A DNA stretch of 64,000 nt. Source: a virus (lineage: Duplodnaviria > Caudoviricetes). The position numbers and the translations under genes are program-made. The stretch lies in the IMG/VR virus record IMGVR_UViG_3300027754_000037; one strand, 5' to 3'. The notes beneath the pieces are model-generated. The model was not told the origin of the DNA. It searched no databases and worked only from the letters and a program-made list of their open reading frames with translations. This document shows positions 22,417-59,238 of the stretch, one piece after another; the first letter of the stretch is position 1; every line of letters starts with the position of its first letter.

Positions 22417-23409
22417 TTATGTCAAACCATACATCTCATTCAAAATTTTTACACTCCAAGAAGACTTTCCTAGAGCTATTGATTTACATGGTGCTATAGG
22501 TCGCAAAACCAAACCTTCTGCTGGTTTTCCATTTTGATATTTTTGGGTTTTAGCCATATCAATAAGATCCTGTATGCTGTGTTTTTGAACTCCTCTGTAA
22601 ACTAATGGTGCAATAGGAATAGCATTCGTATTGCAAAATACTAATAGTTCATCATAATTAGAAAACCTATTTTCAGATATAAAATATAAATTGAAAACAG
22701 CAAGCTCTACATCTTTAATTCCAGTTGGATTGTCTTGTATTCCTTGTCCGTAAACCTCTCCTTGAATGCAAATGTCTTTGCCAAAAGATGATAGTTTTTC
22801 ATCAATTTTATATTTTCTGACAATATTCCAGAAAGCATTATTGCCATCTTGTAGCTCAAGATTTCGACTACATGAACCAAACACCCCATCTTTAACGAAA
22901 AATGTACCACTACTTCCATCTATTTTCTGAGTAATGTAAACCTCTTTATCTGCAACTTCTATAATAGAAGCAGGATAATTCCTAAGATTATCCTCATCAG
23001 TTTTAATAAGAAAATTAGGAAAATTTCCTTTAGCATTCCCAGCAAGTTGAAGAGGAACAGGCTTTTCATAATGCCTAGCTTTAATAATATTGCTTACATC
23101 TGTTCCTTCTTCTATTGTTGTGTTGAAATTAGGGAATTGTTCCAATATTTTTATTGGAAAACAAATTCCTTGACTAATTTGTCCTCGAAGTCGAATCGGT
23201 TTGATGCGATAATTCTTAGATGCTAAGAAATCAAAAGAGGGATGTGGATCTACAATGCTATCTATGTTTATGTAAACAACAAGGTCTTCAGGTTTAAATT
23301 CTTCTTTTTTACAAACCACTTGCCAGCCTAATACGGTTACAAGTTCTAATGCTGTTGCATTAGGATGTTCATCAATAGATATAATTTTTTCTATTGTTGC
23401 AATTTTCAA
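22417..23409 (-). CDS. RNA ligase (DRB0094/Rnl2-like family)
   Basis: HPNA..LE...VLGWQVV, LRGQISQG, KTDE, motif I TQKIDGSS, QGEVYG, EGLVLR. Confidence 0.92.
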   Translation of the reverse strand: MKIATIEKIISIDEHPNATALELVTVLGWQVVCKKEEFKPEDLVVYINIDSIVDPHPSFDFLASKNYRIKPIRLRGQISQGICFPIKILEQFPNFNTTIEEGTDVSNIIKARHYEKPVPLQLAGNAKGNFPNFLIKTDEDNLRNYPASIIEVADKEVYITQKIDGSSGTFFVKDGVFGSCSRNLELQDGNNAFWNIVRKYKIDEKLSSFGKDICIQGEVYGQGIQDNPTGIKDVELAVFNLYFISENRFSNYDELLVFCNTNAIPIAPLVYRGVQKHSIQDLIDMAKTQKYQNGKPAEGLVLRPIAPCKSIALGKSSWSVKILNEMYGLT

Positions 23410-31725: not shown

Positions 31726-32595
31726 ATGATAAAATCTTTTCTTGAATATTTGGCTGAAGCCACTAAGGGCAACCAGCCCAAGATCAAAATCGTTGCCATT
31801 CAGGGATCGCCAAGAACAATAGATTCTTGTTCAGGTGGAGATTCCAAAACTTCTTTTTTACTCAAGAAGGCAATCGATAGTCTTTCCAACGATATTGTCG
31901 TAGATTTGATTGATTTGAAAGTGATGGATACCGATCCTCAGGTTCGACCTTGTAAGGGTTGTATAGGCACTTCCAACGGCTTTCATTGCCATTTCCCATG
32001 CAGTTGTTATGACAAGGACGATGGCACCAACGATTTAATGCATGAAGAAAATGTATATGAAAGAATGCAAAAAGCAGATGGCTTTGTGGTTTTCACTCCT
32101 GTGCATTGGTCTGGACCTAGCAGTCAAGTTAAGGCATTTTTCGACAGGTTGGTTTGTGTTAATCTGACTCTGACAAGAGAAGATGCCAAGAAGCTTTACG
32201 GCAAAGATATCAAAGACCCGAAGAAGACTATCGCTGCTGAACAATCTGGAAAGTATAGGGATTTGCTAAAAAATCACTTTGAAGGTAAGTTCGGAGCTTT
32301 TTTCATTCACGGTGATGACGGAGCAAATGATTACAACAATGGCAAAATTCCCCTGTCGATGGCACAACATAAGTCAATGGATTACATGAGCCCCAAAGAG
32401 GGGATCATGCCTATTGTCAACCAATGCAGATATTCTGGTATTTTTGTGCATGAAGATTGCATTCATGGGCAAGTTTTTGGTTACAAAAAACCATATAGTC
32501 AAAATAATATCGACATTAAGAAAAGCGAAATGATTGAAAAAGCTTCAAAATTAGTCGATTGTCTTGTCCAACACATTCGTAAATCCAAAAATTGA
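31726..32595 (+). CDS. Flavodoxin-like NADPH-dependent FMN reductase / iron-sulfur flavoprotein
   Basis: IQGSPR, PCKGC...CHFPC.C, ADG...TPV.W, FFDR; N-term MIKSFLEYLAE. Confidence 0.85.
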   Translation: MIKSFLEYLAEATKGNQPKIKIVAIQGSPRTIDSCSGGDSKTSFLLKKAIDSLSNDIVVDLIDLKVMDTDPQVRPCKGCIGTSNGFHCHFPCSCYDKDDGTNDLMHEENVYERMQKADGFVVFTPVHWSGPSSQVKAFFDRLVCVNLTLTREDAKKLYGKDIKDPKKTIAAEQSGKYRDLLKNHFEGKFGAFFIHGDDGANDYNNGKIPLSMAQHKSMDYMSPKEGIMPIVNQCRYSGIFVHEDCIHGQVFGYKKPYSQNNIDIKKSEMIEKASKLVDCLVQHIRKSKN

Positions 32596-32978
32596 GCTTA
32601 TGTTGCAGCAACATAAATTCATGTTATACTGCTTCTGTTCTTGTCCCGAAGGCCATGCTTAAGAAAGTTAAAAACATGTCAGATGAAATTGTTATGCCAG
32701 AGATCAAGCACTCTGAAAAGATGCGAGATAGTTTGAAGAATTTCGTAGGCCAGCCAATCGCAATACTTTGTGCACGATTTAATTATCGTGGCATCTTGAG
32801 TCATGTTGGCGATGATCATCTTGTTTTGGCGCAGGCCCGTGCTGTGGAATCCAGCGGCGCAAGTAGCCAAGAACGACCTACTAATGAGGACGCTATAGGT
32901 TGCTCTATTTTTATTAGTCTTAATGCTGTCGAATTGGTATATTGGCCTCGTTGGGCATATGCCTCTTTGGATGACTGA
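32592..32978 (+). CDS. Hypothetical protein, possible Sm/LSm-like fold (start probably 32655 or 32676)
   Basis: GQPIAILC..FNYRGIL..VGDDHLVL pattern. Confidence 0.55.
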   Translation: MSLCCSNINSCYTASVLVPKAMLKKVKNMSDEIVMPEIKHSEKMRDSLKNFVGQPIAILCARFNYRGILSHVGDDHLVLAQARAVESSGASSQERPTNEDAIGCSIFISLNAVELVYWPRWAYASLDD

Positions 32979-37494: not shown

Positions 37495-37722
37495 ATGGAA
37501 GTCCAAGTCAACGATATTGTTCAAATCAATCCAGAAGTCAACCACCACGACGGTTTCTGGGCCGGAAACCTACTTGTAGTCACAGAAGTCAAAAGTTGGG
37601 GAGTTCAAGGTTATTGCAGAACACCTGAAGGCTATGCATATATGCGCCTCAAAAATGACCAATACGAAAAAGTTGGAGCTTTAGTCTGGACTCCTGAAAG
37701 CATAGTTAAGGAGAAATCATGA
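37495..37722 (+). CDS. Conserved hypothetical phage protein
   Basis: DIVQINP...VVTEVKSWGVQGY pattern; GGAG RBS. Confidence 0.7.
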   Translation: MEVQVNDIVQINPEVNHHDGFWAGNLLVVTEVKSWGVQGYCRTPEGYAYMRLKNDQYEKVGALVWTPESIVKEKS

Positions 37723-37904
37723 ATGCACCAGATGGAGAAATGAAACTTGTGGTTTGGAAAGAAGAAAAAAACAAATGGCTATGGCAGATCGAAGAAAATG
37801 GCAAAAAAATAAAAGGTCGAAATGTGGATGGCAAAGCAGAATCATTTCAAGAAGCATATACCGCAGCTAAAAAGAGATTGCTGCAAGAAAAAAGAAAAGA
37901 GTAG
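37719..37904 (+). CDS. Hypothetical small protein
   Basis: ATGA-coupled. Confidence 0.55.
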   Translation: MNAPDGEMKLVVWKEEKNKWLWQIEENGKKIKGRNVDGKAESFQEAYTAAKKRLLQEKRKE

Positions 37905-37966: not shown

Positions 37967-38722
37967 ATGGGAATTCATAGAGGCACCACAAGACCAGATG
38001 GCAAAATGTTTTGGGCATATCGATTCAGATACGGCAAAAAAACAGAAATTTGGATCAAACCAGAACAGTACCAAAGACGAGAAAACACACGAATTGCCTA
38101 CTCAAAGAATAGAAACAATAAAATGCGTGAAAAACTTCAAGATATTCCTCCTGAAGAAAAAAATTATGTGGGAAAATATTGTCCTGAAAAAGGACTTTAT
38201 TTTTTAAAATATTATGTCAGCGGAAACGCAGTATACGGCACTTTAGAAGAACTCAAAACCTTCAGGTTGGCCCAAAAGAAAAGAAATAGAGAATATCTTG
38301 ATCGCTGCAAGGAACAGTTTCCATTACCCAATCTGTCTTTTGGCGATCAACACCCAAACGATCCAAACCTCTTTGTAATCGCTGTCCGTAGGAATAAATT
38401 ATTTTTTGGCTCCCGTGAACAATATGAATCTAAAAGACAAAGACTTAACGAATCCTATAAAAGATACAAGCAAAAAAATCGAGAAATAATCAAGATCAAA
38501 AATAAAAAAATTACTGAAGAAAAAACAAAGTTCCTTAATGAAAATCCTCACCTTAAAAGGTTCAGAGGTGATATTGATCCCCTTTTCAATAAGATATTCT
38601 GGGGATATAACTCCAGACACAACGAAGTCTGGCTTAAACCCGATGTTTACCATCAGAGAAGATTGCGGGCCAATAAAAGGACAAGCTTGCTTAAAAAGAA
38701 CAAAAAACTACCACAGCAATAA
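37967..38722 (+). CDS. Basic hypothetical protein with repeated RG...FW.Y...E.W.KP..Y module
   Basis: Module at both N- and C-terminus; Lys/Arg-rich, resembles homing-endonuclease accessory repeats. Confidence 0.6.
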   Translation: MGIHRGTTRPDGKMFWAYRFRYGKKTEIWIKPEQYQRRENTRIAYSKNRNNKMREKLQDIPPEEKNYVGKYCPEKGLYFLKYYVSGNAVYGTLEELKTFRLAQKKRNREYLDRCKEQFPLPNLSFGDQHPNDPNLFVIAVRRNKLFFGSREQYESKRQRLNESYKRYKQKNREIIKIKNKKITEEKTKFLNENPHLKRFRGDIDPLFNKIFWGYNSRHNEVWLKPDVYHQRRLRANKRTSLLKKNKKLPQQ

Positions 38723-38725: not shown

Positions 38726-38908
38726 ATGATCCTTAAAGCAAATACTTATAGCAACAACAATTGTTTTGGATTTGATAATCCAAAATCAATTTGCTGGTCT
38801 ATTTCTAGGTCTTGGTCTTTGTCTTGGCTTTGGTCTTGGTCTTGGTCTTGGTCTTGGTCTAGGTCTGGGTGGTGGTCATCTCATGGAGCAGCAATATATG
38901 ATCCTTAA
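38726..38908 (+). CDS. Ser/Trp-rich micro-ORF family, unit B1
   Basis: MILKANTYSNNNCFGF..KSICWS; 1-nt deletion in the HW codons shifts the tail frame. Confidence 0.6.
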   Translation: MILKANTYSNNNCFGFDNPKSICWSISRSWSLSWLWSWSWSWSWSRSGWWSSHGAAIYDP

Positions 38909-39113
38909 ATCAAATTCATATAGCAATAACAATTGCTTTGGATTTAATACTCCAAAATCAAATTGCTGGTCTATGTCTAGGTCTAGGTCTTGGTCTAGGG
39001 ATTGGGATTGGGATTGGTCTATGTCTATGTCTATGGATTGGTCTTGGTCTAGGTCTATGTCTAGGTCTAGGTCTTGGTCTTTTTGGTCTAAACATTGGAG
39101 TGCCAATATATGA
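38898..39113 (+). CDS. Ser/Trp-rich micro-ORF family, unit B2
   Basis: MILKSNSYSNNNCFGF..KSNCWS...KHWSANI. Confidence 0.65.
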   Translation: MILKSNSYSNNNCFGFNTPKSNCWSMSRSRSWSRDWDWDWSMSMSMDWSWSRSMSRSRSWSFWSKHWSANI

Positions 39114-39343
39114 TCCTTAAAGCAAATACTTATAGCAATAACAGATGCTTTGGATTTAATACTCCAAAATCAAATTGCTGGTCTAGGTCTTGGTCTGGGT
39201 CTAGGTCTATGTTTAGGTCTATGTCTTGGTCTTGGTCTTGGTCTTGGTCTTGGTCTATGTCTATGTCTTGGTCTAGGTCTATGTCTAGGTCTATGTCTAG
39301 GTCTTGGTCTTTTTGGTCTAAACATTGGAGTGCCAATATATGA
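39110..39343 (+). CDS. Ser/Trp-rich micro-ORF family, unit B3
   Basis: ATGA-coupled; MILKANTYSNNRCFGF...KHWSANI. Confidence 0.65.
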   Translation: MILKANTYSNNRCFGFNTPKSNCWSRSWSGSRSMFRSMSWSWSWSWSWSMSMSWSRSMSRSMSRSWSFWSKHWSANI

Positions 39344-39576
39344 TCCTTAAAGCAAATACTTATAGCAACAACAAATGTTTTGGATTTAAATATCCAAAAT
39401 CAAATTGCTGGTCTAGGTCTTGGTCTGGGTCTAGGTCTATGTTTAGGTCTATGTCTTGGTCTTGGTCTTGGTCTTGGTCTATGTCTTGGTCTAGGGATTG
39501 GTCTATGTCTAGGTCTTGGACTTATTCTTTGTCTAGGTGTGAGTGGTGGTCATCTCATTGGAGCAGTAGCATATGA
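39340..39576 (+). CDS. Ser/Trp-rich micro-ORF family, unit B4
   Basis: ATGA-coupled; MILKANTYSNNKCFGF...SHWSSSI. Confidence 0.65.
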   Translation: MILKANTYSNNKCFGFKYPKSNCWSRSWSGSRSMFRSMSWSWSWSWSMSWSRDWSMSRSWTYSLSRCEWWSSHWSSSI

Positions 39577-39782
39577 TCTTTAAAACAGCCGCTCATATTG
39601 ATAATTATTGTTTTGGATTTAATAATTCAAAATCTCTGTGCTGGTCTAATTCTAAATATAATTCTAATTCTTGGTCTTGGCTTTTTCCTTGGTCTCAGCT
39701 TTGGGTTAGATTTAAATCTAGATCTTGGTCTAGGTCTAGGTCTAGGTATTAGTGGTCAACTCATTGGAGTAATAATCAATGA
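39573..39782 (+). pseudogene. Ser/Trp-rich unit B5 with premature TAG at 39750
   Basis: MIFKTAAHIDNNCFGF..KSLCWS...RY*WSTHWSNNQ; TAG where TGG expected. Confidence 0.55.
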
Positions 39783-39901
39783 TCCTTAAAACAAATAGCC
39801 ATAGCAATAACAGATGCTTTGGATTTAATAATCCAAAATCAAATTGCTGGTCTTGGTCTGGGGCTTGGTCTTGTTCTAAACATTGGAGCAGCAATCAATG
39901 A
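39779..39901 (+). CDS. Ser/Trp-rich micro-ORF family, short unit B6 (40 aa)
   Basis: MILKTNSHSNNRCFGFNNPKSNCWSWSGAWSCSKHWSSNQ. Confidence 0.6.
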   Translation: MILKTNSHSNNRCFGFNNPKSNCWSWSGAWSCSKHWSSNQ

Positions 39902-39914
39902 TAATCAATGAATT

Positions 39915-40916
39915 TCATGATTTCCTAACTAGATTTCCAAAGAATTGAGAAGTAGCATTATTCCAAGTATAATTTTTAAGCACATGCTCTCTGCAATTGT
40001 TATTTTGAATAAGATCATGACATTCTTTAACCGCAAAGCTCAAGTCAAAATTGGCACAACCTATTCGCTTGCCTCCTGCAACTATTTCACCAGCCCCTTT
40101 ACAATCGTAACAAGCTACTGGTAGTCCACAAGACATTGCTTCGATGTTGACCAGTCCAAATGTATCAAATTTGCTTGGGAAAACAAAGATGTCATGGGAA
40201 GCTAATTCGACAGCCAACTCTTCACCATGCAAGAATCCGGTAAATCTTACATCAGGGTGATAAAAAATACAATTTTCAAGACTTATTCCATCTCCAATTA
40301 TTGTCTTTTCATATCTGTTATCCAATTCTAGAAAATTTTTAATGCCTTTCTCTGGACTCACTCTACCACAATACACTAATTTCTTTCTTTGATTTCTTTC
40401 TTTTGGAATAGGCTTAAATAGCTCTGTGTCTACTCCCCTGCTCCATATTTTTATAGGTGCAGTAAATCCATAAGATTTAAGTATTAGTATATTTTGCTCA
40501 GTAGTAGCCATTACACATTCAGACTTATTATGAAACCATCTCAAATATTTCTTGGATAATCTTAGTCCAAATCCAAATGTTTTATAGAAGAAGTTTGGAA
40601 TATCTGTGTGATAAGCTGTGGTGAATTTATAACCTTTTTTAATACAATATTTTCTAACAGCTAATCCAATTATTCCTTCTGTGCTGATGTGAACATAATC
40701 AGCCCATTCTATTTTATCTTTGATTGTTTTAGTTCTGACCCAGTATGGAGAAAATACATCTTTGGTGAATGGAACTTTGAAACACCAGTAATCAGATGGA
40801 CAAATAACTTTTATAGTATGCCCCATCTCTTCTAATGTTTTTATTGTATTTTTTAATGTATTAACAACACCGTTCACTTGTGGCTCCCAAGCATCTGTAG
40901 CTATAAGTATATTCAT
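39915..40916 (-). CDS. GT4 glycosyltransferase, Agt-like (glycosyl-diacylglycerol synthase)
   Basis: TDAWEPQVNGVV.TL, VHISTEG.IG, TTAYHT, RWFHN, WSRGVD.ELF, GRVS.EK, FPS..DTFGLV.IEAM. Confidence 0.88.
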   Translation of the reverse strand: MNILIATDAWEPQVNGVVNTLKNTIKTLEEMGHTIKVICPSDYWCFKVPFTKDVFSPYWVRTKTIKDKIEWADYVHISTEGIIGLAVRKYCIKKGYKFTTAYHTDIPNFFYKTFGFGLRLSKKYLRWFHNKSECVMATTEQNILILKSYGFTAPIKIWSRGVDTELFKPIPKERNQRKKLVYCGRVSPEKGIKNFLELDNRYEKTIIGDGISLENCIFYHPDVRFTGFLHGEELAVELASHDIFVFPSKFDTFGLVNIEAMSCGLPVACYDCKGAGEIVAGGKRIGCANFDLSFAVKECHDLIQNNNCREHVLKNYTWNNATSQFFGNLVRKS

Positions 40917-41590
40917 ATATCGTTCAAATGAACTGCTCCTTCCATTATGGTTAAATAAGAACAAGGTTTATCAGTCCAGCAACCGGAATTGCCGTACCAT
41001 ATACCTTCTACTAAAGTTGTTTCTTGGAAATGAGTATGACCGCAACAAACTATATCCGCTCCTTTATCTTTCGCATACTTCAACGCTTCTTTCTTTATTC
41101 TGTCACTATTTCTTAGGAATGTTTTACTGTTCTTTTTGGCATAGACAGCGAGAGAATGAGTTCTATCTATTTTCTGCATCAACCAATATATTCCATCAGC
41201 AAAATAAGTAAATATTGGATACTGTTGAATGAAACTGTCAAAACTATCTCCATGTAAACAAATTACTTTTTTATCGCCACTCTCAAAAACAAATTCTTGC
41301 GTAAATTCTAATCCTAAAAGATTGCTGACGAATTCATAATGCCCATCGTGATTGCCGTTAATCCAAACTACTTCTGTTTTTTTAGATAATTTTCTAAGGT
41401 CTTTTAAAATGTGCCAATGTGATTTTGGTAATTTGTTGAAATTTAAACAATCAAATAAATCTCCATTGACAATTAGCTTTTGAGTTTGTATTTTATCATC
41501 TTGTATCTTTTTCAAAAACTTGTCCAAAGCTTCCGCTTGGCAAACATCAGAGCCGAGGTGAATGTCAGATATGATGATCGCATCAAACAT
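40913..41590 (-). CDS. Metallophosphoesterase of the LpxH/PlcP family (phospholipase C-like)
   Basis: SDIHLG, NGDLFD, GNHD, HGDSFD, CGHTH, NSGCW; ATGA-coupled to the GT4 gene. Confidence 0.88.
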   Translation of the reverse strand: MFDAIIISDIHLGSDVCQAEALDKFLKKIQDDKIQTQKLIVNGDLFDCLNFNKLPKSHWHILKDLRKLSKKTEVVWINGNHDGHYEFVSNLLGLEFTQEFVFESGDKKVICLHGDSFDSFIQQYPIFTYFADGIYWLMQKIDRTHSLAVYAKKNSKTFLRNSDRIKKEALKYAKDKGADIVCCGHTHFQETTLVEGIWYGNSGCWTDKPCSYLTIMEGAVHLNDI

Positions 41591-48669: not shown

Positions 48670-48697
48670 TTAATTGTATTTTTGAAACGAAACTTCC
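48670..48697 (+). promoter_or_regulatory. Repeated early-promoter-like motif, copy 1
   Basis: TTAATTGTATTTTTGAAACGAAACTTCC, 28 nt before ATG 48726. Confidence 0.8.
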
Positions 48698-48725
48698 TGT
48701 TGTCTTATGAAAGGGGGATTCTCTA

Positions 48726-49802
48726 ATGCAAAGCCACTTTGTATTCTTTGGTTCCAAGGATTCTAAGTCCCGTCCTGAGCCTACAGACCTTGAGAAAAGG
48801 GCCAAGATTGACCGAAACAATCCAACAGCACCATTTTCCCGGTTCGTCGGGAATGATCGTGCTGTGAAGAAACTACAGGTAGCAGCATACAAGGCCTTGG
48901 GTCATCCTAACCATATGATGCGAGACTTGAGTTTCGCCATATATGGCCCCGCAAGCGCAGGCAAGACTACCCTTGCCCGCCTGTATGCCGAAACTGTGCA
49001 GTTGCCTTTCCTTGAGGTAAGTCCAAAATCACTCAAAACAGCCGATGATCTGTTCGATCAGATCAAAGTTGTCCTGAAGGATGCTGGCATTCCCCTAGTG
49101 GAAGGCAAGACAAATCACTATAAGCTACCTCCAATAGTGATTTTTATTGATGAAGTCCATGCTCTTGTGGACAGCGTGGTGCAAGGTCTGCTCAAAGCAA
49201 CCGAGTACAACGATGCAATTCTAGCAACTGAGAGTGGTAAAGTCCTTGATTGCTATGCAGCAACATGGATGATCGCCACTACAGATGAGGGAAAGTTGTT
49301 CGATGCCTTCAGAACTAGATTCAGCCCTGTGCAGTTGAAATATCTTACAAAGGATGAATTGTCCAAGATCGTTCACAAGGCTCACCCAGATTTGACATCT
49401 GAGGTGTGCGGTATTGTGGCGCACTACAACTCAAGAGTTCCACGCAAGGCACTTGAGTTTGCCCGCTACATGAAGCTTGTGCGTGAGATGGACAAGTCTA
49501 TTGATTGGAGCGAGATTGCACAGCAGGTGGCTGAGGACGAGGGTATTGACAAGTTTGGGATGTCAGAAGTCCACTTTAAGGTTCTGAAGTCCCTTGCTAC
49601 CGGCCCCGTGGCCCAGAGTCGAATGACGACTGTTGTAGGTAGAAAAATAGATGAGGTTGAGAAGTTTATCATGCCTTGGCTGATGACCGAGACTGATGAC
49701 CAACCAGCATTAGTTGGAGTTAGCCGTAGGGGTTATGTGCTGACTGATGCTGGGCGAGAACAACTCTCGCTCCGTGGGATTGATACAGCAATTGCTGCAT
49801 AG
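48726..49802 (+). CDS. ruvB: RuvB-like AAA+ ATPase (Holliday junction helicase family)
   Basis: GPASAGKTTLA Walker A, IFIDEVH Walker B, ATTD, FRTRF Arg finger, VPRKA sensor 2, C-terminal wHTH with RRGYVLT. Confidence 0.85.
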   Translation: MQSHFVFFGSKDSKSRPEPTDLEKRAKIDRNNPTAPFSRFVGNDRAVKKLQVAAYKALGHPNHMMRDLSFAIYGPASAGKTTLARLYAETVQLPFLEVSPKSLKTADDLFDQIKVVLKDAGIPLVEGKTNHYKLPPIVIFIDEVHALVDSVVQGLLKATEYNDAILATESGKVLDCYAATWMIATTDEGKLFDAFRTRFSPVQLKYLTKDELSKIVHKAHPDLTSEVCGIVAHYNSRVPRKALEFARYMKLVREMDKSIDWSEIAQQVAEDEGIDKFGMSEVHFKVLKSLATGPVAQSRMTTVVGRKIDEVEKFIMPWLMTETDDQPALVGVSRRGYVLTDAGREQLSLRGIDTAIAA

Positions 49803-49806
49803 TGAT

Positions 49807-49848
49807 ATCGGCTAGAAGCTTCAGTCATAGGCTTCTAGCCGATTTTTT
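49807..49848 (+). terminator. Rho-independent terminator
   Basis: ATCGGCTAGAAGC / GCTTCTAGCCGAT stem plus T tract. Confidence 0.8.
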
Positions 49849-49904
49849 CTGTTGGGATTTAGGGGAATTGTACCTACAGGATAAATGTCAAAAAACTCCT
49901 GAAT

Positions 49905-49932
49905 TTAATTGTATTTTTGAAACGGAACTTCC
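49905..49932 (+). promoter_or_regulatory. Repeated early-promoter-like motif, copy 2
   Basis: TTAATTGTATTTTTGAAACGGAACTTCC then GTATCACTTTG. Confidence 0.85.
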
Positions 49933-49979
49933 GTATCACTTTGTCAGGTTTCAATTTAAAGAATTTAAAGGAGTTTGCA

Positions 49980-50282
49980 ATGATCCCTTCTTTCAAAAAA
50001 CTGTCAGAAAGTTTTGGCCCCCTGAAGGCGAAAATTGTGCGAAAGATAATGGAAAATTTCCATAATAGGGGCCGGTCGGGGTGTTACAAAACAATGGAGC
50101 AGATTGATGTTGTTCTGAATGGTCATGGAGTCGAATTCATCGATGCTGGGAAAGGCCGCAAAAGTCCCGCCATCACTTATGTGAACATGGGCGACACTTA
50201 CGATTGTACGGTCATGTGGGTAAATGGAAGTTTTAGAGTAGGGTGTTGGGGCGATATTGTAGAGCAGGGCAACTACGCCTGA
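49980..50282 (+). CDS. Conserved hypothetical phage protein
   Basis: AAGGAG RBS; G.GVE.I...Y.NMGDTY..T...WGD.VE pattern. Confidence 0.75.
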   Translation: MIPSFKKLSESFGPLKAKIVRKIMENFHNRGRSGCYKTMEQIDVVLNGHGVEFIDAGKGRKSPAITYVNMGDTYDCTVMWVNGSFRVGCWGDIVEQGNYA

Positions 50283-50302
50283 TTCCAAAAAAATTCCTGA
50301 AT

Positions 50303-50330
50303 TTAATTGTATTTTTCAGACGGAACTTCC
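50303..50330 (+). promoter_or_regulatory. Repeated early-promoter-like motif, copy 3
   Basis: TTAATTGTATTTTTCAGACGGAACTTCC. Confidence 0.85.
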
Positions 50331-50369
50331 GTATCACTTTGTAAGGGTCAAATAACGAAGGAGTTTGTA

Positions 50370-50639
50370 ATGAGCAATCGAGCATTTATCGAATCTGTAA
50401 CTGTAACAGACAATAAGACTAAAGAAGAAGGTTCTTTTATAAAGATTTATGACGATTATGGAACAGCTTATATCTCAGTAGAAAATGCTATAGATGATGA
50501 TTTTGCTATTTTGAAAGCAGCAACTTCATCGTTTGATGAGGTCGCCAAGGGCATTCTTGACCATGTTAATGAAATGGAAAAAGGATTGCACATATGTGGA
50601 ACATGGTACAACTGGGATGAAATTAAAGATATGTTCTAA
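50370..50639 (+). CDS. Hypothetical protein
   Basis: AAGGAG RBS before ATG 50370; acidic. Confidence 0.7.
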   Translation: MSNRAFIESVTVTDNKTKEEGSFIKIYDDYGTAYISVENAIDDDFAILKAATSSFDEVAKGILDHVNEMEKGLHICGTWYNWDEIKDMF

Positions 50640-50650
50640 AATTCCTGAAT

Positions 50651-50678
50651 TTAATTGTATTTTTGAAACGGAACTTCC
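50651..50678 (+). promoter_or_regulatory. Repeated early-promoter-like motif, copy 4
   Basis: TTAATTGTATTTTTGAAACGGAACTTCC. Confidence 0.85.
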
Positions 50679-50719
50679 GTATCACTTTGTAAGGTTCAAA
50701 TAAAGAAAAGGAAAAGATC

Positions 50720-51136
50720 ATGACCATCACTTTGACCGGAAAAAATGCAATCGAGTATATCAAGGCTGTCATTCGGCCACGGATGGACGAAAACATCCCC
50801 GGTTTGATGATTTTCGGAAACGAGGTTGACGGGGATGGCGTGGAAAATGCCACCCTTGGGCATGCCATCGATGCTGCCGACGAGGACGGCAGCTTGGTTT
50901 CTTACGGCTTAACGGAAAAAACCACCAATGCGGAATTTTTCACGATGGCCGAAACCGCAGCAGGTTCTTTTAGACTCGAAAAAATCGAAAAAGGAATCGC
51001 TAGCGTGACTTGGGATGCTGATCAAATAGATTGGCAGGAAATTATTCCACCAATGTTCCGGGGTCATGAAGAAGAAATAAAAGGATTGGCGGAACAATGC
51101 TACCAAAAATGGATGAAAGAGGATGAAGGAGTCTGA
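50720..51136 (+). CDS. Hypothetical acidic protein
   Basis: AAGGA RBS; follows motif copy 4. Confidence 0.7.
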   Translation: MTITLTGKNAIEYIKAVIRPRMDENIPGLMIFGNEVDGDGVENATLGHAIDAADEDGSLVSYGLTEKTTNAEFFTMAETAAGSFRLEKIEKGIASVTWDADQIDWQEIIPPMFRGHEEEIKGLAEQCYQKWMKEDEGV

Positions 51137-51152
51137 GTTTATCGCTATTCAC

Positions 51153-51193
51153 AAAGACTGACAGAGGAATAAACTCCTCTGTCAGTCTTTTTT
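51153..51193 (+). terminator. Rho-independent terminator
   Basis: AAAGACTGACAGAGG / CCTCTGTCAGTCTTT stem plus T tract. Confidence 0.85.
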
Positions 51194-51252
51194 TATTTGC
51201 ATTCTTTAGGGGAATTGTACCTACAGGATAAATGTCAAAAAAATTCCTGAAT

Positions 51253-51280
51253 TTAATTGTATTTTTGGAACGGAACTTCC
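51253..51280 (+). promoter_or_regulatory. Repeated early-promoter-like motif, copy 5
   Basis: TTAATTGTATTTTTGGAACGGAACTTCC. Confidence 0.85.
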
Positions 51281-51331
51281 GTATCACTTTGTCAGAAGCA
51301 ATTTACTAAGGTTTAAACAATAGGAGTGCCC

Positions 51332-51514
51332 ATGCTGGTTTCAAAAGATTATTACACCTGTGATGATGCTATGGTAGTAACCATAGAAGGAGTTTTTGAA
51401 GGCAAGGAAGCAGAATGGGATGGCTGCACTTCCCATACTGATAAGAGAATCGAATGGGAACAAGAGCCAGAAGATGGCTGGGTTTACAAAGATTTTAGTT
51501 TTCGAGCGAATTAG
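51332..51514 (+). CDS. Hypothetical small protein
   Basis: AGGAG RBS; follows motif copy 5. Confidence 0.65.
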   Translation: MLVSKDYYTCDDAMVVTIEGVFEGKEAEWDGCTSHTDKRIEWEQEPEDGWVYKDFSFRAN

Positions 51515-51757
51515 GAGCCTTGACGAATAAGGTTCAACCAACGAAAAGGAAAAGGAAAAGATCAATGAAAATTATCAGCAGTCATTTAACACGAGCATCT
51601 GCCCGTAATTCAGCAAAACGGGGCCAAAGGGTAATCAAGGCCGGGTTTTTCTCAAATGGATCATTCGGACTATTCAGTCCCGGCAATCATCATGGTGGTT
51701 TGGTTTTGATTCATGTTTGGCATGTTGTTTCAAACTAAGGTTCAATAAAAAGGAGTT

Positions 51758-52006
51758 ATGAACATGAAAGATTACGCCGCCGTAGTGGTGGAAGTTATGG
51801 CCGGAGCTTCGGCTGGAGAGGGTTGGGATGCCAACCGCTCATTCTGGGCCGATGAAGATGGGGCATGGGATGGCCTACAGGTTGGGGAACATGTGATGGT
51901 GGATGGGGAGTTATATGTAAAATACGGGGAGTGGGAGGAATACTCCTGTGGGGTCGATTGTTGTGGTTGGGCCAATTTTGGCCTAGCTAAAGTCACTTTC
52001 AAGTGA
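51758..52006 (+). CDS. Hypothetical acidic Trp-rich protein
   Basis: AAGGAG RBS. Confidence 0.65.
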   Translation: MNMKDYAAVVVEVMAGASAGEGWDANRSFWADEDGAWDGLQVGEHVMVDGELYVKYGEWEEYSCGVDCCGWANFGLAKVTFK

Positions 52007-52054
52007 CTCAATCCACTTCTTGGGATTTCAAAAAGTTAAAAAGAGGAATTCGCA

Positions 52055-52462
52055 ATGATCAAGGGATTGGCTTATACATGCGCTCCGATTCTTGGCCTTA
52101 AAGAAGCCAAGGATCGGAAGAAAGTGCTAGATGATTATCGAAAACTGGGACAGGAGGAGGCCGAGTTGCTCCTGACCCAGCGTCTTGATGATTTGGAATA
52201 TATTGATCTTGGCAACAACGAGGGGTTGCCTGCCGATGATTGGATGATTGCTCAGATCGGCGGTGGTGACGGCAAGGTTGTCTTGCACCCTTATACATAC
52301 AATGAGGAAAGTCCAATGATGGACGATTACCTAAAGCCTGAAAAAAGCTACACCACCCAAGGCGACCCCGTTTGGGTATGCAAAGGTTTTGCCTTGGAGA
52401 TCCACGAGGCAGAACTAAGGCGCATTCACCCGTGGTTGAAAGCAATCAATATCATCAAATAG
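52055..52462 (+). CDS. Hypothetical protein
   Basis: GAGG RBS; followed by terminator. Confidence 0.7.
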   Translation: MIKGLAYTCAPILGLKEAKDRKKVLDDYRKLGQEEAELLLTQRLDDLEYIDLGNNEGLPADDWMIAQIGGGDGKVVLHPYTYNEESPMMDDYLKPEKSYTTQGDPVWVCKGFALEIHEAELRRIHPWLKAINIIK

Positions 52463-52465
52463 CAG

Positions 52466-52494
52466 GAGGGGGCTTCGGCCCCCTCTTTTTTTTT
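52466..52494 (+). terminator. Rho-independent terminator (UUCG tetraloop)
   Basis: GAGGGGGC-TTCG-GCCCCCTC-T9. Confidence 0.92.
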
Positions 52495-52546
52495 GGCAAT
52501 TTTAGCTCCTTTCAATAATATTGATCCATAGATACATGCTGTACTT

Positions 52547-52879
52547 TCAACGATCCTCCTGCTTTGCCCGCACACAGTACCTCAGATGGAAAAAGTTGTT
52601 GCCAGTAGGGTGCAAATCCATGCCAAATTCCTGCAATCCGTAAAGTTTATACACATAGGTCTTGGCATCAGTTCGCTCCAGTTCTGCCTTGATTTGTTCA
52701 AGATTGCCAAACTTACTTGTCGTGCATTGAGCCGGTTGACCATCCTCATCCATGAATGTTGCTTCTTGGACAATACGAAACTTAGCGTCAATCAGCGACA
52801 ACGGTAACTCTTGTTTGGACTGAATGGTTTTTTGAGCCGCCAGAAACGCTCTTTGCTCGATGTTTGTTGTTTCACTCAT
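52547..52879 (-). CDS. Hypothetical protein
   Basis: 110 aa, GAGG RBS on minus strand; only clear minus-strand gene of the right-hand module. Confidence 0.6.
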   Translation of the reverse strand: MSETTNIEQRAFLAAQKTIQSKQELPLSLIDAKFRIVQEATFMDEDGQPAQCTTSKFGNLEQIKAELERTDAKTYVYKLYGLQEFGMDLHPTGNNFFHLRYCVRAKQEDR

Positions 52880-53066
52880 ATTGCAACATCCTCTTTGGTT
52901 TCGCTAAAATTTTTAAACCTTATAAACTGTACTATACCAGCAAGTACAGCCTTCAACAATTTTTTATCCTGTAGGTACAATTTGTCTAAAACTTCTGAAA
53001 GTTTTCGAGATACTCTAAATTATTTCGTGTTAGATTGTAGATAATTGCAATAACGAAATTAGGAGT

Positions 53067-53738
53067 ATGTCCATGAGAAATTTTAGTGAATGGCTAAGTG
53101 ATTTTTCAGAAGTAAGTGATATTAAAATATGTGAATCCAGTTTAACCCGCATGATGTCCCTTCAGAATTCCCCTTGGTGCATCATTACAGCATACCGCAA
53201 GAAGAATTCTGACGGTACAGTTAGAAACAGAGATCAGAACATCGCTGCCAACAGGGTTCTTCGTGGAAAGTTGAACAGCATGAAGATGGGAGTACATCAG
53301 TTGATTGGGCATTGGCGTGAGTGTAAGGACAGCAATATTCCATACCCTCAATGTCCTGAAGAGATGAAAGTCGATGTAATTGAGCGGTCTTACTTTGTGG
53401 CGAAACCCCCAGAAGTGGAAATTGAAGATTTTGAAACGCTTATGCTTCAACTGTGCCGTGAATTTAACCAAGATGGAGTTTTGCTGAGTGATGGGCAATC
53501 CGTCAAGCTTGCCTATCCAAGCGGTGAAAAGGATGTAATTGGCAGCAGCAATATGGCATTGAACAAGGTTGCTCAGGCTTATAGTCAGCACATCATGAAG
53601 CAGAATGTTCCATTTGTGTTTGAAGGGTTTCAACAATTTCATGGGAATGCTGCACGGCAAGGTTCTTCCAAGAGCGGGCTAACCCTTCCACCCTTGGATG
53701 AGAACTTTGTTGTCCTTGCCGCAAAACAATTAAACTAG
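53067..53738 (+). CDS. Putative internal head protein (ESSL.R...IITAYR family)
   Basis: MRNFSEWL N-terminus; ESSLTR, IITAYR, N..ANR.L..KL, G.W.E, QDGVL. Confidence 0.7.
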   Translation: MSMRNFSEWLSDFSEVSDIKICESSLTRMMSLQNSPWCIITAYRKKNSDGTVRNRDQNIAANRVLRGKLNSMKMGVHQLIGHWRECKDSNIPYPQCPEEMKVDVIERSYFVAKPPEVEIEDFETLMLQLCREFNQDGVLLSDGQSVKLAYPSGEKDVIGSSNMALNKVAQAYSQHIMKQNVPFVFEGFQQFHGNAARQGSSKSGLTLPPLDENFVVLAAKQLN

Positions 53739-53762
53739 CATTTATAAATTCTTAAATCCTTA

Positions 53763-53799
53763 AACCAGCGGGAGTTATGACTCTCGTTGGTTTTTTTTT
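53763..53799 (+). terminator. Rho-independent terminator
   Basis: AACCAGCGGGAG / CTCTCGTTGGTT stem plus T tract. Confidence 0.8.
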
Positions 53800-53804
53800 G
53801 GAAT

Positions 53805-53832
53805 TTAATTGTATTTTTCAAACAAAACTTCC
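53805..53832 (+). promoter_or_regulatory. Repeated early-promoter-like motif, copy 6
   Basis: TTAATTGTATTTTTCAAACAAAACTTCC. Confidence 0.85.
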
Positions 53833-53871
53833 TGTAGCACTATAGGTTCCATTACTTTGGAGGAAGTTTCC

Positions 53872-54186
53872 ATGAAATGTCAATGGTGCGTAAAGGCTCC
53901 CGCCGAAAAGGCCGCTGGCGAGTTGTCTGTTTGTAGCAATTGTTACAAGAACATTCAACAGTACCACAAATGTAATGTTTGTGGTTGTGAGATTGATGCA
54001 GACCTTGCGAGGTTTCGTCGCAAGCGTTTTGAAACTGGCACTTGCCTGAGCGCAAGTTGCTCCCGCAAGGAATTGATTGCGAGGGGCAGCGTTTGTTGCG
54101 AGCGGGCGAAGTTGCGTAACTGCTCCTGCGCTCGTAGTTTAGAGTGTGATCGGCATGGCATCCGTTGTACCGGAACCCACAACTAA
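53872..54186 (+). CDS. Cys-rich multi-zinc-finger protein
   Basis: GGAGG RBS; three CxxC pairs plus Cx4C, CC, CxC and CxxHxxxC in 104 aa. Confidence 0.7.
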   Translation: MKCQWCVKAPAEKAAGELSVCSNCYKNIQQYHKCNVCGCEIDADLARFRRKRFETGTCLSASCSRKELIARGSVCCERAKLRNCSCARSLECDRHGIRCTGTHN

Positions 54187-54196
54187 GGAGTATTCA

Positions 54197-54595
54197 ATGA
54201 ACCTGCAAATTTCCAATCGAAAGTTAGCTGTTGCTCGTAAGTCTCAAATTTTGGCTTTGGCCAAGGCTGGCAAGCCTCGTCCCAACAGCAAGGATTCCGC
54301 CCTAGGAAAGGCATTGAGGAAATACATCACCAATGGCAGCACCAGCTATGATGGTGAATTCAAGAAAGAAGTTTTGCGGGTTGCCCCAGAGGGATGGTTC
54401 CGCAACGAGGCGGAAAAAAAGAAGGCGAAGCTGGTTAAGATGGCTAAGGCTGGAAAGCCTCGTCCAAGCTTTTCCACTTCTTTGGGTAAGGCATTGAAGT
54501 TTTACACTTCCCATTCCCATACCGCTTACTGTAAAGAAACCACCTTGGAGTTGTTATCAATAGCTCCACATTGGTTTCGACGGGCAGTAATTTGA
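54197..54595 (+). CDS. Basic protein with two tandem AKAGKPRP...LGKAL..Y...AP.WF repeats
   Basis: AAGGAG RBS; internal duplication visible. Confidence 0.75.
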   Translation: MNLQISNRKLAVARKSQILALAKAGKPRPNSKDSALGKALRKYITNGSTSYDGEFKKEVLRVAPEGWFRNEAEKKKAKLVKMAKAGKPRPSFSTSLGKALKFYTSHSHTAYCKETTLELLSIAPHWFRRAVI

Positions 54596-54598
54596 TGC

Positions 54599-54621
54599 AA
54601 GTCCTTTTATTGTAAGGACTT
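54599..54621. promoter_or_regulatory. Dyad site AAGTCCTT-N7-AAGGACTT (copy 2)
   Basis: AAGTCCTT-ttattgt-AAGGACTT, 24 nt before motif copy 7. Confidence 0.55.
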
Positions 54622-54645
54622 AAAAATTACAATAAATTACTGAAT

Positions 54646-54673
54646 TTAATTGTATTTTTCAAACGAAACTTCC
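54646..54673 (+). promoter_or_regulatory. Repeated early-promoter-like motif, copy 7
   Basis: TTAATTGTATTTTTCAAACGAAACTTCC. Confidence 0.85.
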
Positions 54674-54717
54674 AGTATCACTTTGGAGAGACAGTTTTAA
54701 CCAGTAAGGAGACTGCA

Positions 54718-55272
54718 ATGTCTGACTACACATCTGCCCCAGCATGTCAACTCCTCGCAACGCATTGCTGCGTTTGCGGGCGACCCCTAGTTGACGCAAT
54801 TAGCGTCAGCTTGGGTATCGGCCCTGAGTGCAGGGGCGGGGCCAATGGCGGGATCACTTCCGAGCAGCAGGAAGCTGCAAACAAAATCACCTTCCTTGCT
54901 GCAATTGCAGCGCAGGAGGGGAAGATTGAGGAGGTGCGGGGTCATGCCGATGCCTTGCGGGTGCTGGGACTCAGCGTTTTGGCAGAAAAGGTGGCCGAGA
55001 GGTTCACCAAAGCCGAAAGGCAGGCCAAAATCTCCATCGTTGAGGATGGCGATATCCTCAAGGTGGACACCCCTTTCCGCCGTGGCGATAAGGATGCCTT
55101 TATTGCGGCATGGAGGGGCATTCCCGGTCGCCGTTACAAGAACGGGGCCAACTTGATCCCCAAGTCTGAAAAGCAGGCCTTGTATGGCCTGCTCCAGCAG
55201 TTCTTCCCCGGCCAGTATGCTGTGGGGCCGAAGGGGGTTTTCCGAATTCCCAAGCCAGAAGTCGAGGCCTAA
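54718..55272 (+). CDS. DUF6011-like zinc-finger protein
   Basis: CCVCGRPLVDA.S...GIGPEC; AAGGAG RBS. Confidence 0.75.
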   Translation: MSDYTSAPACQLLATHCCVCGRPLVDAISVSLGIGPECRGGANGGITSEQQEAANKITFLAAIAAQEGKIEEVRGHADALRVLGLSVLAEKVAERFTKAERQAKISIVEDGDILKVDTPFRRGDKDAFIAAWRGIPGRRYKNGANLIPKSEKQALYGLLQQFFPGQYAVGPKGVFRIPKPEVEA

Positions 55273-55281
55273 GCCTCACTC

Positions 55282-55310
55282 AGCCCCCTAGGCAACTAGG
55301 GGGCTTTTTT
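55282..55310 (+). terminator. Rho-independent terminator
   Basis: AGCCCCCTAG-GCAA-CTAGGGGGCT-TTTTT. Confidence 0.9.
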
Positions 55311-55349
55311 ATTTGTGCAGGACATTTTTTTTAACATGGGAGGTCAATT

Positions 55350-55625
55350 ATGGCTAAGAAATACAAGTTGATCTGCAAGCTGACCCGTCCTGTTGTAACG
55401 AACGAGGGCGATTTCATACCTGCTGGCACCCCTTGTGAGGTGCTGCGTTGGGATAAAACAGAAAACGGTAAGATCGAGGTCCGCACCAAGGCGTATATGT
55501 ACGCTGACGATCTTGGCGAGGATCGTAATGGGCCTGTTCCCGTTGTAAACACGGGATTGATCATAGCGGTCGATCCGATTGACCTTGAGTACAAGGATTC
55601 TTTTTCAATCAATTCTGTGGAGTAA
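55350..55625 (+). CDS. Hypothetical protein
   Basis: GGAGG RBS. Confidence 0.7.
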   Translation: MAKKYKLICKLTRPVVTNEGDFIPAGTPCEVLRWDKTENGKIEVRTKAYMYADDLGEDRNGPVPVVNTGLIIAVDPIDLEYKDSFSINSVE

Positions 55626-55865
55626 CTGAGATGAAAATGAAAGTCGATGCTGACAAGGTTATTGATCTTTACCCCTTTCCGCCGTGGCGATAAGGATGCC
55701 TTCATTGCTGCGTGGAGAGGAATTCCCGGTCGCCGTTACAAGAACGGGGCCAACTTGATCCCTAGAACTGAGAAGCAGGCCTTGTATGGCCTGCTCCAGC
55801 AATTCTTCCCCGGCCAGTATGCTGTGGGGCCGAAAGGGGTTTTCCGAATTCCCAAGCCGGAATAA
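55619..55865 (+). pseudogene. Out-of-frame chimera of the 55974 gene 5' end and the 54718 gene 3' end
   Basis: 55619-55670 matches 55962-56013 (5 mismatches in 52 nt); 55671-55862 matches 55069-55260; ATG 55631 hits TAA after 20 codons. Confidence 0.8.
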
Positions 55866-55885
55866 ATTCCAAAATATTCCTGAAT

Positions 55886-55913
55886 TTAATTGTATTTTTG
55901 AAACGGAACTTCC
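55886..55913 (+). promoter_or_regulatory. Repeated early-promoter-like motif, copy 8
   Basis: TTAATTGTATTTTTGAAACGGAACTTCC. Confidence 0.85.
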
Positions 55914-55973
55914 GTATCACTATGAAGGGAGCCACTAGAGAGCTACCTTCAAGGACACCTTGGAGCAACTGAG

Positions 55974-56204
55974 ATGAAAATGAAAGTTGATGCCAGCAAG
56001 GTTATTGATCTTTTGGTTGCTGCCTACAGGGAGCGACTTGAGGACGATGGCGATCTTGTTGCCGATGAGTTGGGCGAAAACTGGCCCAACGAGATCGAGC
56101 GGGTCGAATATGATCCCGCAAAAGACGAAATCAAATTCATCCCATCTGAGGAAGGACTTGAAACCCTTCCCCAATCCTTTGTTCGCCAACTCAAGGAGAT
56201 TTGA
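55974..56204 (+). CDS. Hypothetical acidic protein
   Basis: GGAG RBS; 76 aa. Confidence 0.7.
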   Translation: MKMKVDASKVIDLLVAAYRERLEDDGDLVADELGENWPNEIERVEYDPAKDEIKFIPSEEGLETLPQSFVRQLKEI

Positions 56205-56205
56205 T

Positions 56206-59237: not shown

Positions 59238-59238
59238 G

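Follow-up and report, generated by a model that had tools for sequence, protein, structure and literature searches.

Does a run of short open reading frames (ORFs) built largely from one hexanucleotide microsatellite represent a set of genes, in which frame would such genes be read, and what could their products do? These questions are raised by a locus in the virus record IMGVR_UViG_3300027754_000037 (Duplodnaviria; Caudoviricetes), from which we analysed a stretch of 64,000 nucleotides (nt), referred to as the window. At positions 38726–39901 on the plus strand six units follow each other head to tail (array B, units B1 to B6), where an original prediction made from the sequence alone had placed them. 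A second, inverted array of five units (array A, A1 to A5) lies at 21558–22412 on the minus strand. The whole record (G000 in the following; 33% complete) comprises 144 kb, about 33% of the phage genome, and holds 11 units with no further copies.

From comparison with relatives and with a wider class of viral repeats we conclude that the frame in which serine alternates with tryptophan (Ser-Trp) is very probably the coding frame and that the units are translated genes. The explanation that we favour as a whole, with moderate confidence, is that both arrays consist of translationally coupled genes for Ser-Trp micro-proteins, which would act as disordered binders of polyanions and are possibly linked to an Sm-fold protein of the phage.

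Organization of the repeat units

Each unit has its own ATG and starts with ATGAT.CTTAAA (M-I-L-K), followed by a leader of 25 residues with two cysteines nine residues apart, a core of hexamers and a fixed tail. In the units of array B the leader reads N-N-x-C-F-G-F-N-x-P-K-S-x-C-W-S and the tail [KS]-H-W-S-x-x-[IQ]. The start M-[INT]-[ILF]-K-x-N is found in ten of the 11 window units, which encode ORFs of 34–81 amino acids (aa); the exception is A3 (MFK). The core consists almost throughout of NGGTCT-type hexamers (TGGTCT, AGGTCT and ATGTCT) read as X-Ser, where X is mostly Trp, Arg or Met. Over all units the cores contain 143 Ser, 81 Trp, 37 Arg, 25 Met and 10 Gly. A 38-nt leader motif gave 11 matches in the 144-kb record and none with a reversed control, and Tandem Repeats Finder reported a period of 230 nt at 89% identity (score 893). 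The leader, hexamer core, ATGA overlaps and product lengths of 40–78 aa described for array B were all found as claimed; coordinates of the single units are given in Table 1.

Eight of the 11 copies are intact and three are damaged. The frameshift expected in the tail of B1 turned out to be a deletion of one nucleotide. B5 is closed by a TAG nine codons ahead of the tail, and beyond this stop the remnant WSTHWSNNQ and an ATGA junction are still present. The stop codon had been foreseen as a change from TGG, an ancestry which is uncertain because the matching codon of B4 is GAG. Behind the last unit, B6, there is a duplicated junction, after which the 3' end of a convergent glycosyltransferase gene is reached.

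Exact pieces of the array were detected in Logan contigs of four freshwater runs that had been assembled independently, one of them from 2025, so array B is real and not an assembly artefact. The 2025 contig has no listed difference from the window at the TAG of B5. All Logan contigs carrying array pieces break inside the array, and among the matches listed there was no RNA run carrying it. Summed read depth over the hexamer cores (38769–39505) amounted to thousands in four freshwater metagenomes as compared to about 76 for the phage itself, therefore NGGTCT arrays of many other organisms or viruses must be abundant in the lake samples.

Units B3 and B4 are identical through the early core, which indicates a recent duplication, and B2 and B3 are identical at the 3' end. 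B2 differs from B3 by an indel of 18 nt and B4 from B3 by an indel of 3 nt, all in frame, in agreement with the in-frame length variation that had been proposed. Identical stretches together with these indels point to unequal crossing-over and slippage. Taken with the three damaged copies, this signature argues for a birth-and-death turnover of the units.

B1 starts 3 nt past the stop codon of a gene for a 251-aa basic protein and A1 starts 4 nt past that of an RNA ligase gene. Within the arrays the junctions are ATGA overlaps, save at the frameshifted B1/B2 and the broken A1/A2 junctions. In eight of the nine non-first units (B2–B6 and A3–A5) the sequence TGGAG ends 9 nt ahead of the ATG; A2, located behind the broken A1, has TTGGATT in place of GGAG, and GGAG is absent upstream of B1. 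The GGAG is itself encoded within the W-S of the preceding unit's HWS tail (CAT TGG AGY). Among the phage's long ORFs 38% have a Shine-Dalgarno-like motif in front, compared to 10% of random positions, so the phage does use such motifs. Since GGAG and ATGA are located there, translational coupling accounts for a large part of the fixed tail as well as for the M-I (ATGAT) of the leader. The tail is conserved, as had been predicted, but it is not purely a feature of the peptide: it doubles as Shine-Dalgarno sequence and ATGA junction of the next cistron, and its conservation therefore need not reflect peptide function. As to promoters, neither array has in its vicinity any of the twelve copies of a 27-nt promoter-like motif present in the window (Table 1; no copy expected by chance), so this element does not drive the arrays; the T4 late-promoter consensus TATAAATA is absent near the arrays as well.

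Relatives of the units and a wider class of repeats

Coupled arrays of related units were found in the records G001, G002, G003, G004 and G006 and in a metagenome contig of 2.8 kb (L324). Their units start with MI[LIF]K-x-N, contain a C-W motif and a Trp/Ser-rich body and end in a W..N[IQ] tail, with bodies far less repetitive than the cores of the window. Alignments of units and relatives show C-W-[SNTE] after the leader, the Trp/Ser-rich body and a Trp 3–5 residues before the stop. Junctions in the relatives are ATGA overlaps with TTGGA exactly 10 nt ahead of the next ATG. This junction pattern has 98 matches in viral contigs, only five of them (in G001, G004 and G006) with small Trp-rich ORFs. 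The two-Cys CFGF leader is confined to G000 and G001; the remaining relatives have a shorter leader in which MILK-x-N-x-F-S passes straight to [KR]-C-W-S and the two-Cys segment is absent. One array of the relatives is headed by a non-repetitive protein of 73 aa with a MILK start, an internal ...S-I-C-W-T... and the end ...S-E-H-W-N-Q-[AE]-I followed by ATGA. Its two ends are collinear with the leader end and the tail of the units and show weak similarity to them (E 0.02–0.04). Judged from this likeness, a protein of the 73-aa kind is a possible ancestor type.

One of these records, G001 (IMGVR_UViG_3300027754_005796; L010/L009/L367), is 40% complete and has two loci, one with a 73-aa unit plus decayed remnants and the other with a 60-aa unit; it contains neither the RNA ligase gene nor the Sm-like gene discussed below. 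G000 and G001 may be different parts of one phage genome or of two close relatives, and in that case the number of loci of the family would rise to four or more. In run X1 the depth of a G001-type contig was 73.5 and that of the window's contig 76.4. The genes flanking the arrays vary by record (RNA ligase, glycosyltransferase family 4 (GT4), DUF5131, a Mom-like protein and a P-loop kinase), so the arrays sit in variable accessory regions. The family is confined to one group of huge T4-like phages from freshwater.

Searches of larger collections returned little else. The DNA pattern of the leader matched only G001 in the viral and metagenome collections, seven further metagenome matches being due to chance, and a word-indexed protein search with B3 gave no match. 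A profile of the 11 units searched against 1.84 billion representatives recovered only B5 itself and one further protein (P0002). The 59-aa product of B5 is the only window unit in the public protein collection (P0001); in an exact look-up among 15 billion proteins seven of eight window peptides, the G001 unit and the Sm-like protein were all missing. P0002 is an unannotated metagenomic singleton of 201 aa with an apparent N-terminal signal peptide and five tandem copies of M-K-N-L-C-L-G-x5-K-S-x-C-Y-S. Its Cys spacing and its K-S-x-C-aromatic-S match the unit leader (profile E 8e-5); otherwise it looks like an unrelated secreted repeat protein.

Similar SRSW-rich ORFs in other environmental phages had been mentioned in the original prediction, and rightly so: (GGTCTN)7 arrays occur in at least 120 viral contigs. 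Among the matches listed, which limit all following counts for this class, (Ser-X)n ORFs with X mostly Trp, Arg or Gly are present at 81 of 120 loci. Several loci contain tandem copies with a common short leader; L012 and L027, for instance, have eight copies each. A small protein of about 86–115 aa, referred to below as the Sm-like partner, is encoded just upstream of the peptide ORFs in 57 loci, and it precedes 50 of the 81 GGTCTN loci with S-X ORFs. No other neighbour is conserved: the remaining neighbour clusters each occur at six of 82 loci at most. The same partner accompanies arrays of the type GGAGCN, in which Ser is encoded by AGC, in 13 loci (e.g. L172).

Reading frame of the repeats

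The window alone does not settle which frame is translated, and several of its features weigh against the Ser-Trp frame. For the leaders of the window paralogues the ratio of non-synonymous to synonymous changes (pN/pS) is 0.62 in the Ser-Trp frame versus 0.59 in the +1 (Leu-Gly) frame. No unit, not even B5, interrupts the +1 frame (Gly-Leu in the core) with a stop codon, and on the antisense strand an Arg-Pro and an Asp-Gln frame stay open over most of the array; the hexamer itself is open in four frames. Because TCT encodes 134 of the 143 Ser residues, the core appears to result from recent slippage rather than from long-term selection on the peptide, and the three damaged copies imply that constraint on single copies is loose. 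Support for the Ser-Trp frame comes from the leader, where Ser codon 7 is written as AGC, TCA or TCC depending on the unit, and the 2025 contig aligned to B6 has TCA where the window reads AGC.

The decision comes from outside the window. In the non-repetitive units of the relatives the ATG frame is the sole open forward frame, the other two holding 3–8 stops, and in two orthologue pairs of relatives pN/pS in this frame is 0.28 and 0.18. Gene callers predict the ORFs of the relatives in the ATG frame (P0003–P0007) and P0001 likewise. At the class loci with an Sm-like partner an in-frame ATG within 40 codons is found for S-X in 74 of 104 GGTCTN arrays and for every other frame in at most 15 of 104. 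Furthermore, the X-Ser reading is constant across hexamer types, whereas other frames change (from Gly-Leu to Gly-Ala). Peptides with a like leader (MNQAIL..G) have their Ser encoded by TCT in L064 and L087 but by AGC in L172.

The same observations bear on the view that the arrays are a non-coding DNA or RNA repeat with incidental ORFs, for instance a protein-binding array, an RNA sponge (possibly for the Sm-like protein) or a substrate for recombination. The leader is conserved in nucleotide blocks that include third codon positions, which fits such an element, as do a leader pN/pS that does not discriminate between frames, a hexamer open in four frames and the almost exclusive use of TCT for core Ser. 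In addition, every unit contains an imperfect palindrome of 22 bp at leader codons 13–20 with a stem of 6–10 bp. Over 12 copies 88% of the cells are paired and four changes lead to G.U pairs, a C-to-T change in three or four units being of this kind; RNA folding z-scores range from -2 to -2.7 in five of nine units. However, the other four units fold no better than shuffled sequences, and when tested as an RNA hairpin over the 12 copies the palindrome showed no compensatory change or covariation. Relatives outside G000 and G001 keep the family without the palindrome. In the relatives ATG, coupling, leader and tail are retained around non-repetitive bodies that have a single open frame and are under purifying selection. 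The S-X reading is moreover what TCT-type and AGC-type hexamers of the class have in common. The palindrome may be an RNA hairpin, a protein-binding site or a coincidence; a purely non-coding repeat we consider very unlikely.

Translation of another frame, giving (Gly-Leu/Cys-Leu)n from +1 or (Arg-Pro/Arg-His)n from the antisense strand, is scarcely credible. It could draw on the open frames mentioned above, on the most variable hexamer base being synonymous in the Gly-Leu and Arg-Pro readings and on three antisense ORFs that begin with an ATG from the complement of the tail CAT or of a core ATG codon. The +1 frame, however, has neither ATG nor Shine-Dalgarno sequence, only an internal TTG; the in-frame start codons of the class favour S-X, and stops close the alternative forward frames in the non-repetitive relatives. 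The Ser-Trp frame, and with it the proposed diversifying family of small aromatic and Ser-rich peptides, is supported.

Sm-fold protein and possible functions of the products

The peptides of the window have a length of 34–81 aa, an isoelectric point (pI) of 8.8–11.9 and a net charge of +2 to +10, with up to 13 Trp, up to 25 Ser and 2–5 Cys; a hydrophobic N-terminus is absent. They are predicted to be disordered: AlphaFold2 gave no confident structure for B3 (mean predicted local distance difference test score (pLDDT) 47). Pfam searches with the peptides returned nothing above noise (EAGR box, E 0.06) and the ESM Atlas held no usable match to B3. With P0003 the ESM Atlas returned plant DUF4216 clusters only, which share too few features and were taken as chance.

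We built a hidden Markov model (HMM) from 57 partner proteins of the class and searched it against the 144-kb record. It matches one ORF (32583–32975, E 1.1e-8). The AlphaFold2 model of this protein, based on an alignment of 44 sequences, has a mean pLDDT of 80.5 and shows an N-terminal helix and six short strands. In a Foldseek search of the PDB the top 50 matches were all Sm/LSm proteins, with target-normalised template modelling (TM) scores up to 0.83. No match to the Sm-like protein of the window was obtained by tblastn against GenBank phages; with a class partner as query, the only match was an unannotated metagenomic phage record. A 75-aa ORF at 37495–37722 was considered as a second Sm-like gene and dismissed, profile comparison showing no similarity. 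In T4 the early proteins GoF, MotB.1 and Frd.2 have been predicted to adopt an LSm-like fold and to have a possible role in RNA stability (PMC12152347). They and the window protein are small LSm-fold proteins of T4-type phages; the accessible part of that article mentions no repeat-peptide partner. We found no description of these peptides in the literature on repeat peptides, phage Sm-like proteins and Trp/Ser repeats.

The arrays share with the class the NGGTCT core read as X-Ser, small ORFs with own ATG and leader, tandem abutting copies with a common leader, basic and disordered products, and a homologue of the partner encoded in the genome. They differ from it in the leader (25 residues with two Cys compared to about ten basic residues), in X (Trp, Arg and Met with little Gly compared to Trp, Arg and Gly, so that Met and Trp are over-represented in the window), in the conserved HW-S tail, in the presence of 11 copies in two inverted arrays and in having relatives with non-repetitive bodies. 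The Sm-like gene stands solo between the arrays, with a DUF6745 gene behind it, whereas peptide genes of the class module lie directly downstream of the Sm-like gene on the same strand. Because this adjacency is missing we regard the arrays as a variant of the Sm-like + (Ser-X)n module and not as a plain member.

How the products might act can be outlined as follows. Arrays are appended 3–4 nt behind an ordinary gene, and the end of each unit carries GGAG and ATGA for the next. The NGGTCT microsatellite would have come to occupy the middle of the protein in this phage, resulting in (W/R/M-Ser)n. Slippage and unequal crossing-over would keep altering length, charge and copy number, and would regularly break copies. 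Since every second residue is Ser, the Trp, Arg and Met side chains would line one face of an extended chain. The disordered, basic and Trp-rich chains could thereby touch a polyanion by many weak cation-pi and stacking contacts, and copy number and repeat length would set the valency. RNA is the most plausible target because the class pairs such peptides with an Sm-fold protein; joint action with the Sm-fold protein of the phage is possible, as in the class module. The setting would likely be host take-over or counter-defence.

An RNA- or Sm-linked function, suggested by analogy, nevertheless has to be called doubtful. The case for function is one of composition and analogy only, the Sm-like gene lies 5.7 kb upstream of array B and adjoins neither array, and at 11 loci of related contigs with Sm-like orthologues (59–71% identity) no S-X ORF is present up to 4 kb away. 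Lacking adjacency, the functional link to the Sm-like gene is weaker here than in the class.

Known systems offer partial parallels. The RS domains of SR proteins and the Arg-Gly tails of SmB, SmD1, SmD3 and LSm4 consist likewise of dipeptide repeats alternating Ser or Gly with a basic residue, are disordered and are associated with RNA-binding modules (Sm/LSm or RNA recognition motif). In contrast, the repeats of the window form separate tiny phage genes with Trp and Met as major partners of Ser, and no link to a kinase or methyltransferase was found for the peptides. Trp/Arg-rich antimicrobial peptides bind membranes and nucleic acids; indolicidin, tritrpticin and synthetic (RW)n resemble the window peptides in being short, cationic and rich in Trp and Arg, yet indolicidin-type peptides are secreted for host defence and do not alternate with Ser, whereas the window peptides have no signal peptide by sequence and would be made in the infected cell. 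The GGGGCC expansion of human C9orf72, also a hexanucleotide microsatellite, is free of stops in several frames of either strand and gives dipeptide repeats that include Arg-rich ones. It is pathological and translated without ATG, unlike the units of the window with their own ATG, Shine-Dalgarno sequence, coupling and one favoured frame.

A more specific version of the RNA-linked proposal would regard the peptides and the Sm-fold protein as a phage ribonucleoprotein or condensate system, a counterpart of Sm/LSm proteins with low-complexity tails. Trp and Arg side chains about 7 Å apart on one face might then stack on successive bases of single-stranded RNA, and hexamer slippage and unequal crossing-over among the coupled copies would tune the valency and charge of the scaffold generation by generation. 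We consider this version improbable.

The strongest competitor to a polyanion binder linked to RNA, itself unlikely, is provided by the hypervariable internal protein (IP) loci of T-even phages, where small genes in tandem share a conserved capsid-targeting sequence at the N-terminus and have bodies that are unrelated. The window peptides would by this analogy be packaged, injected or expendable basic peptides serving as protamine-like DNA counter-ions or as decoys or inhibitors directed at defence proteins of the host, with an arms race behind their fast turnover and without a role for RNA or the Sm-like protein. Common to both are a T4-like phage, tandem small genes, a constant short N-terminus in front of a fast-changing body, basic products and a high turnover between strains. 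The position of the tandem arrays in variable accessory regions with neighbours that differ per relative, the strongly basic products, an Sm-like gene that is unlinked here and the three broken copies, as birth-and-death evolution would give, agree with it. On the other hand, a protease site [LI]-x-E as in T4 capsid-targeting sequences is found in no leader, acidic leader residues being limited to A5 (E22) and to one Asp each in B1, B5, A2 and A3, and the bodies of the window units are low-complexity repeats. Moreover, no defence or anti-defence family was matched, where Pfam was blank for the peptides and PADLOC was not part of the search.

The original prediction had seen in the two-Cys leader and variable core the logic of a precursor of ribosomally synthesised and post-translationally modified peptides (RiPPs). 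Under such a logic a modifying enzyme would recognise the leader and act on the Trp/Ser core, for example by modifying Ser or by cross-linking Trp. Radical S-adenosylmethionine (SAM) cross-linking enzymes indeed have substrates with cores rich in Trp and Ser (darobactin, triceptides), and constant leader, variable core, constant tail and many precursor-like copies would fit, although this layout is not RiPP-specific. The idea is not supported and is in our view highly improbable. No radical-SAM or YcaO match was obtained in the 144-kb record, a search that covers about 33% of the genome and did not extend to other enzyme classes. The flanking genes encode an RNA ligase, the 251-aa basic protein, a GT4 glycosyltransferase and a metallophosphoesterase; the relatives do without the two-Cys segment, the class has leaders of only about ten residues, and among the matches listed no enzyme gene is conserved nearby in the class.

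Serine-rich repeat glycoproteins (SRRPs) of Gram-positive bacteria carry Ser-X dipeptide repeats that are glycosylated by GT4 enzymes. That the repeats of the window are likewise O-glycosylation acceptors for phage glycosyltransferases is hardly plausible in spite of this shared alternation and of a GT4 gene ending 13 nt from the end of B6, since that gene, the only glycosyltransferase gene nearby, is convergent and paired with the metallophosphoesterase gene, no glycosyltransferase is a conserved neighbour in the relatives or, among the matches listed, in the class, and ORFs of 34–81 aa with a polar N-terminus and neither signal peptide nor cell-wall anchor visible on inspection (no signal-peptide predictor was used) are unlike the very long Ser-X regions of SRRPs with signal peptide, anchor, GtfA/B and accessory Sec locus.

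The other features of the window are collected together with the units in Table 1. The gene for the 251-aa basic protein is probably co-transcribed with B1. Its product contains two internal copies of F-W-x-Y...E-[IV]-W-[IL]-K-P-[ED]-x-Y-x-[RQ]-R, and orthologues (38–41% identity) occur in three other viral contigs, which are T4-like. We considered this gene as a specific partner of the array and rejected it, as its orthologues are followed by a 167-aa gene and not by an array; at the one orthologue locus examined it lies between a 146-aa ORF and the 167-aa gene. A short ORF, coupled through ATGA, comes after each of the arrays. The N-termini of these two ORFs and of the next gene beyond array A resemble T4-type capsid-targeting leaders. 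Elsewhere in the window, the open-ended first ORF (1–1125) has collagen-like GGAGCTCAAGGNGAT... repeats, and Gly/Met-rich repeats of 9–27 nt are found at 6741–7221, where ORFs of both strands overlap.

Table 1. Positions of the repeat units, neighbouring genes and DNA motifs in the window.
Feature	Position	Strand	Remarks
Unit B1	38726–38908	+	60 aa; leader intact; 1-nt deletion in tail (CATGG for CATTGG), reads past ATG of B2
Unit B2	38898–39113	+	71 aa, intact; 3' end as in B3
Unit B3	39110–39343	+	77 aa, intact; pI 11.9, net charge +10, 11 Trp, 25 Ser
Unit B4	39340–39576	+	78 aa, intact; early core as in B3
Unit B5	39573–39782	+	59-aa ORF (39573–39752) closed by TAG at 39750–39752
Unit B6	39779–39901	+	40 aa; shortest form in array B, essentially leader and tail
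Unit A1	22272–22412	-	pseudogene; leader indel, in-frame stops
Unit A2	22167–22271	-	34 aa
Unit A3	21985–22167	-	60 aa from ATG at 22167; one leader codon short (MFK for MILK)
Unit A4	21743–21988	-	81 aa; most complex and least repetitive core of the window
Unit A5	21558–21746	-	62 aa; ATGA-coupled to 29-aa ORF
Example junction	39095–39113	+	CAT TGG AGT gives GGAG 9 nt ahead of next ATG; stop overlaps ATG (ATGA)
Palindrome TTTTGGATT-N4-AATCCAAAA	38764–38785	+	example copy; imperfect, 22 bp, leader codons 13–20
Promoter-like motif TAATTGTATTTTTNNAACNNAACTTCC	48671–63219	+	27 nt; twelve copies, all on the plus strand
Sm/LSm-fold protein gene	32655–32978	+	homologue of class partner (HMM, AlphaFold2, Foldseek)
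251-aa basic protein gene	37967–38722	+	directly upstream of B1; no Pfam match
Two coupled small ORFs	37495–37904	+	75 aa and 61 aa; upstream of 251-aa gene; neither with a family match
RNA ligase gene	22417–23409	-	directly upstream of A1
GT4 glycosyltransferase gene	39915–40964	-	convergent with array B
ORF after array A	21472–21561	-	29 aa, MKENFVNFIS...
ORF after array B	39898–39948	+	16 aa, MIINEFHDFL...
Next gene beyond array A	20164–21456		starts MRNFNEYAL...

If the units are genes as proposed, a group of huge freshwater phages would keep a fast-evolving multigene family of tiny disordered Trp/Ser/Arg-rich proteins at several genome positions. They would represent a clear natural case in which slippage of a hexanucleotide makes and varies dipeptide-repeat proteins from proper start sites. 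The family would be linked to a larger, so far unannotated class of phage (Ser-X)n ORFs and Sm-fold proteins, with at least 120 viral contigs for each of two hexamer types. Most ORFs of this kind are missed by gene callers: of eight window peptides searched for, a single one is present among 15 billion proteins. The non-repetitive relatives settle the frame and provide a first handle on the origin of the repeat peptides.

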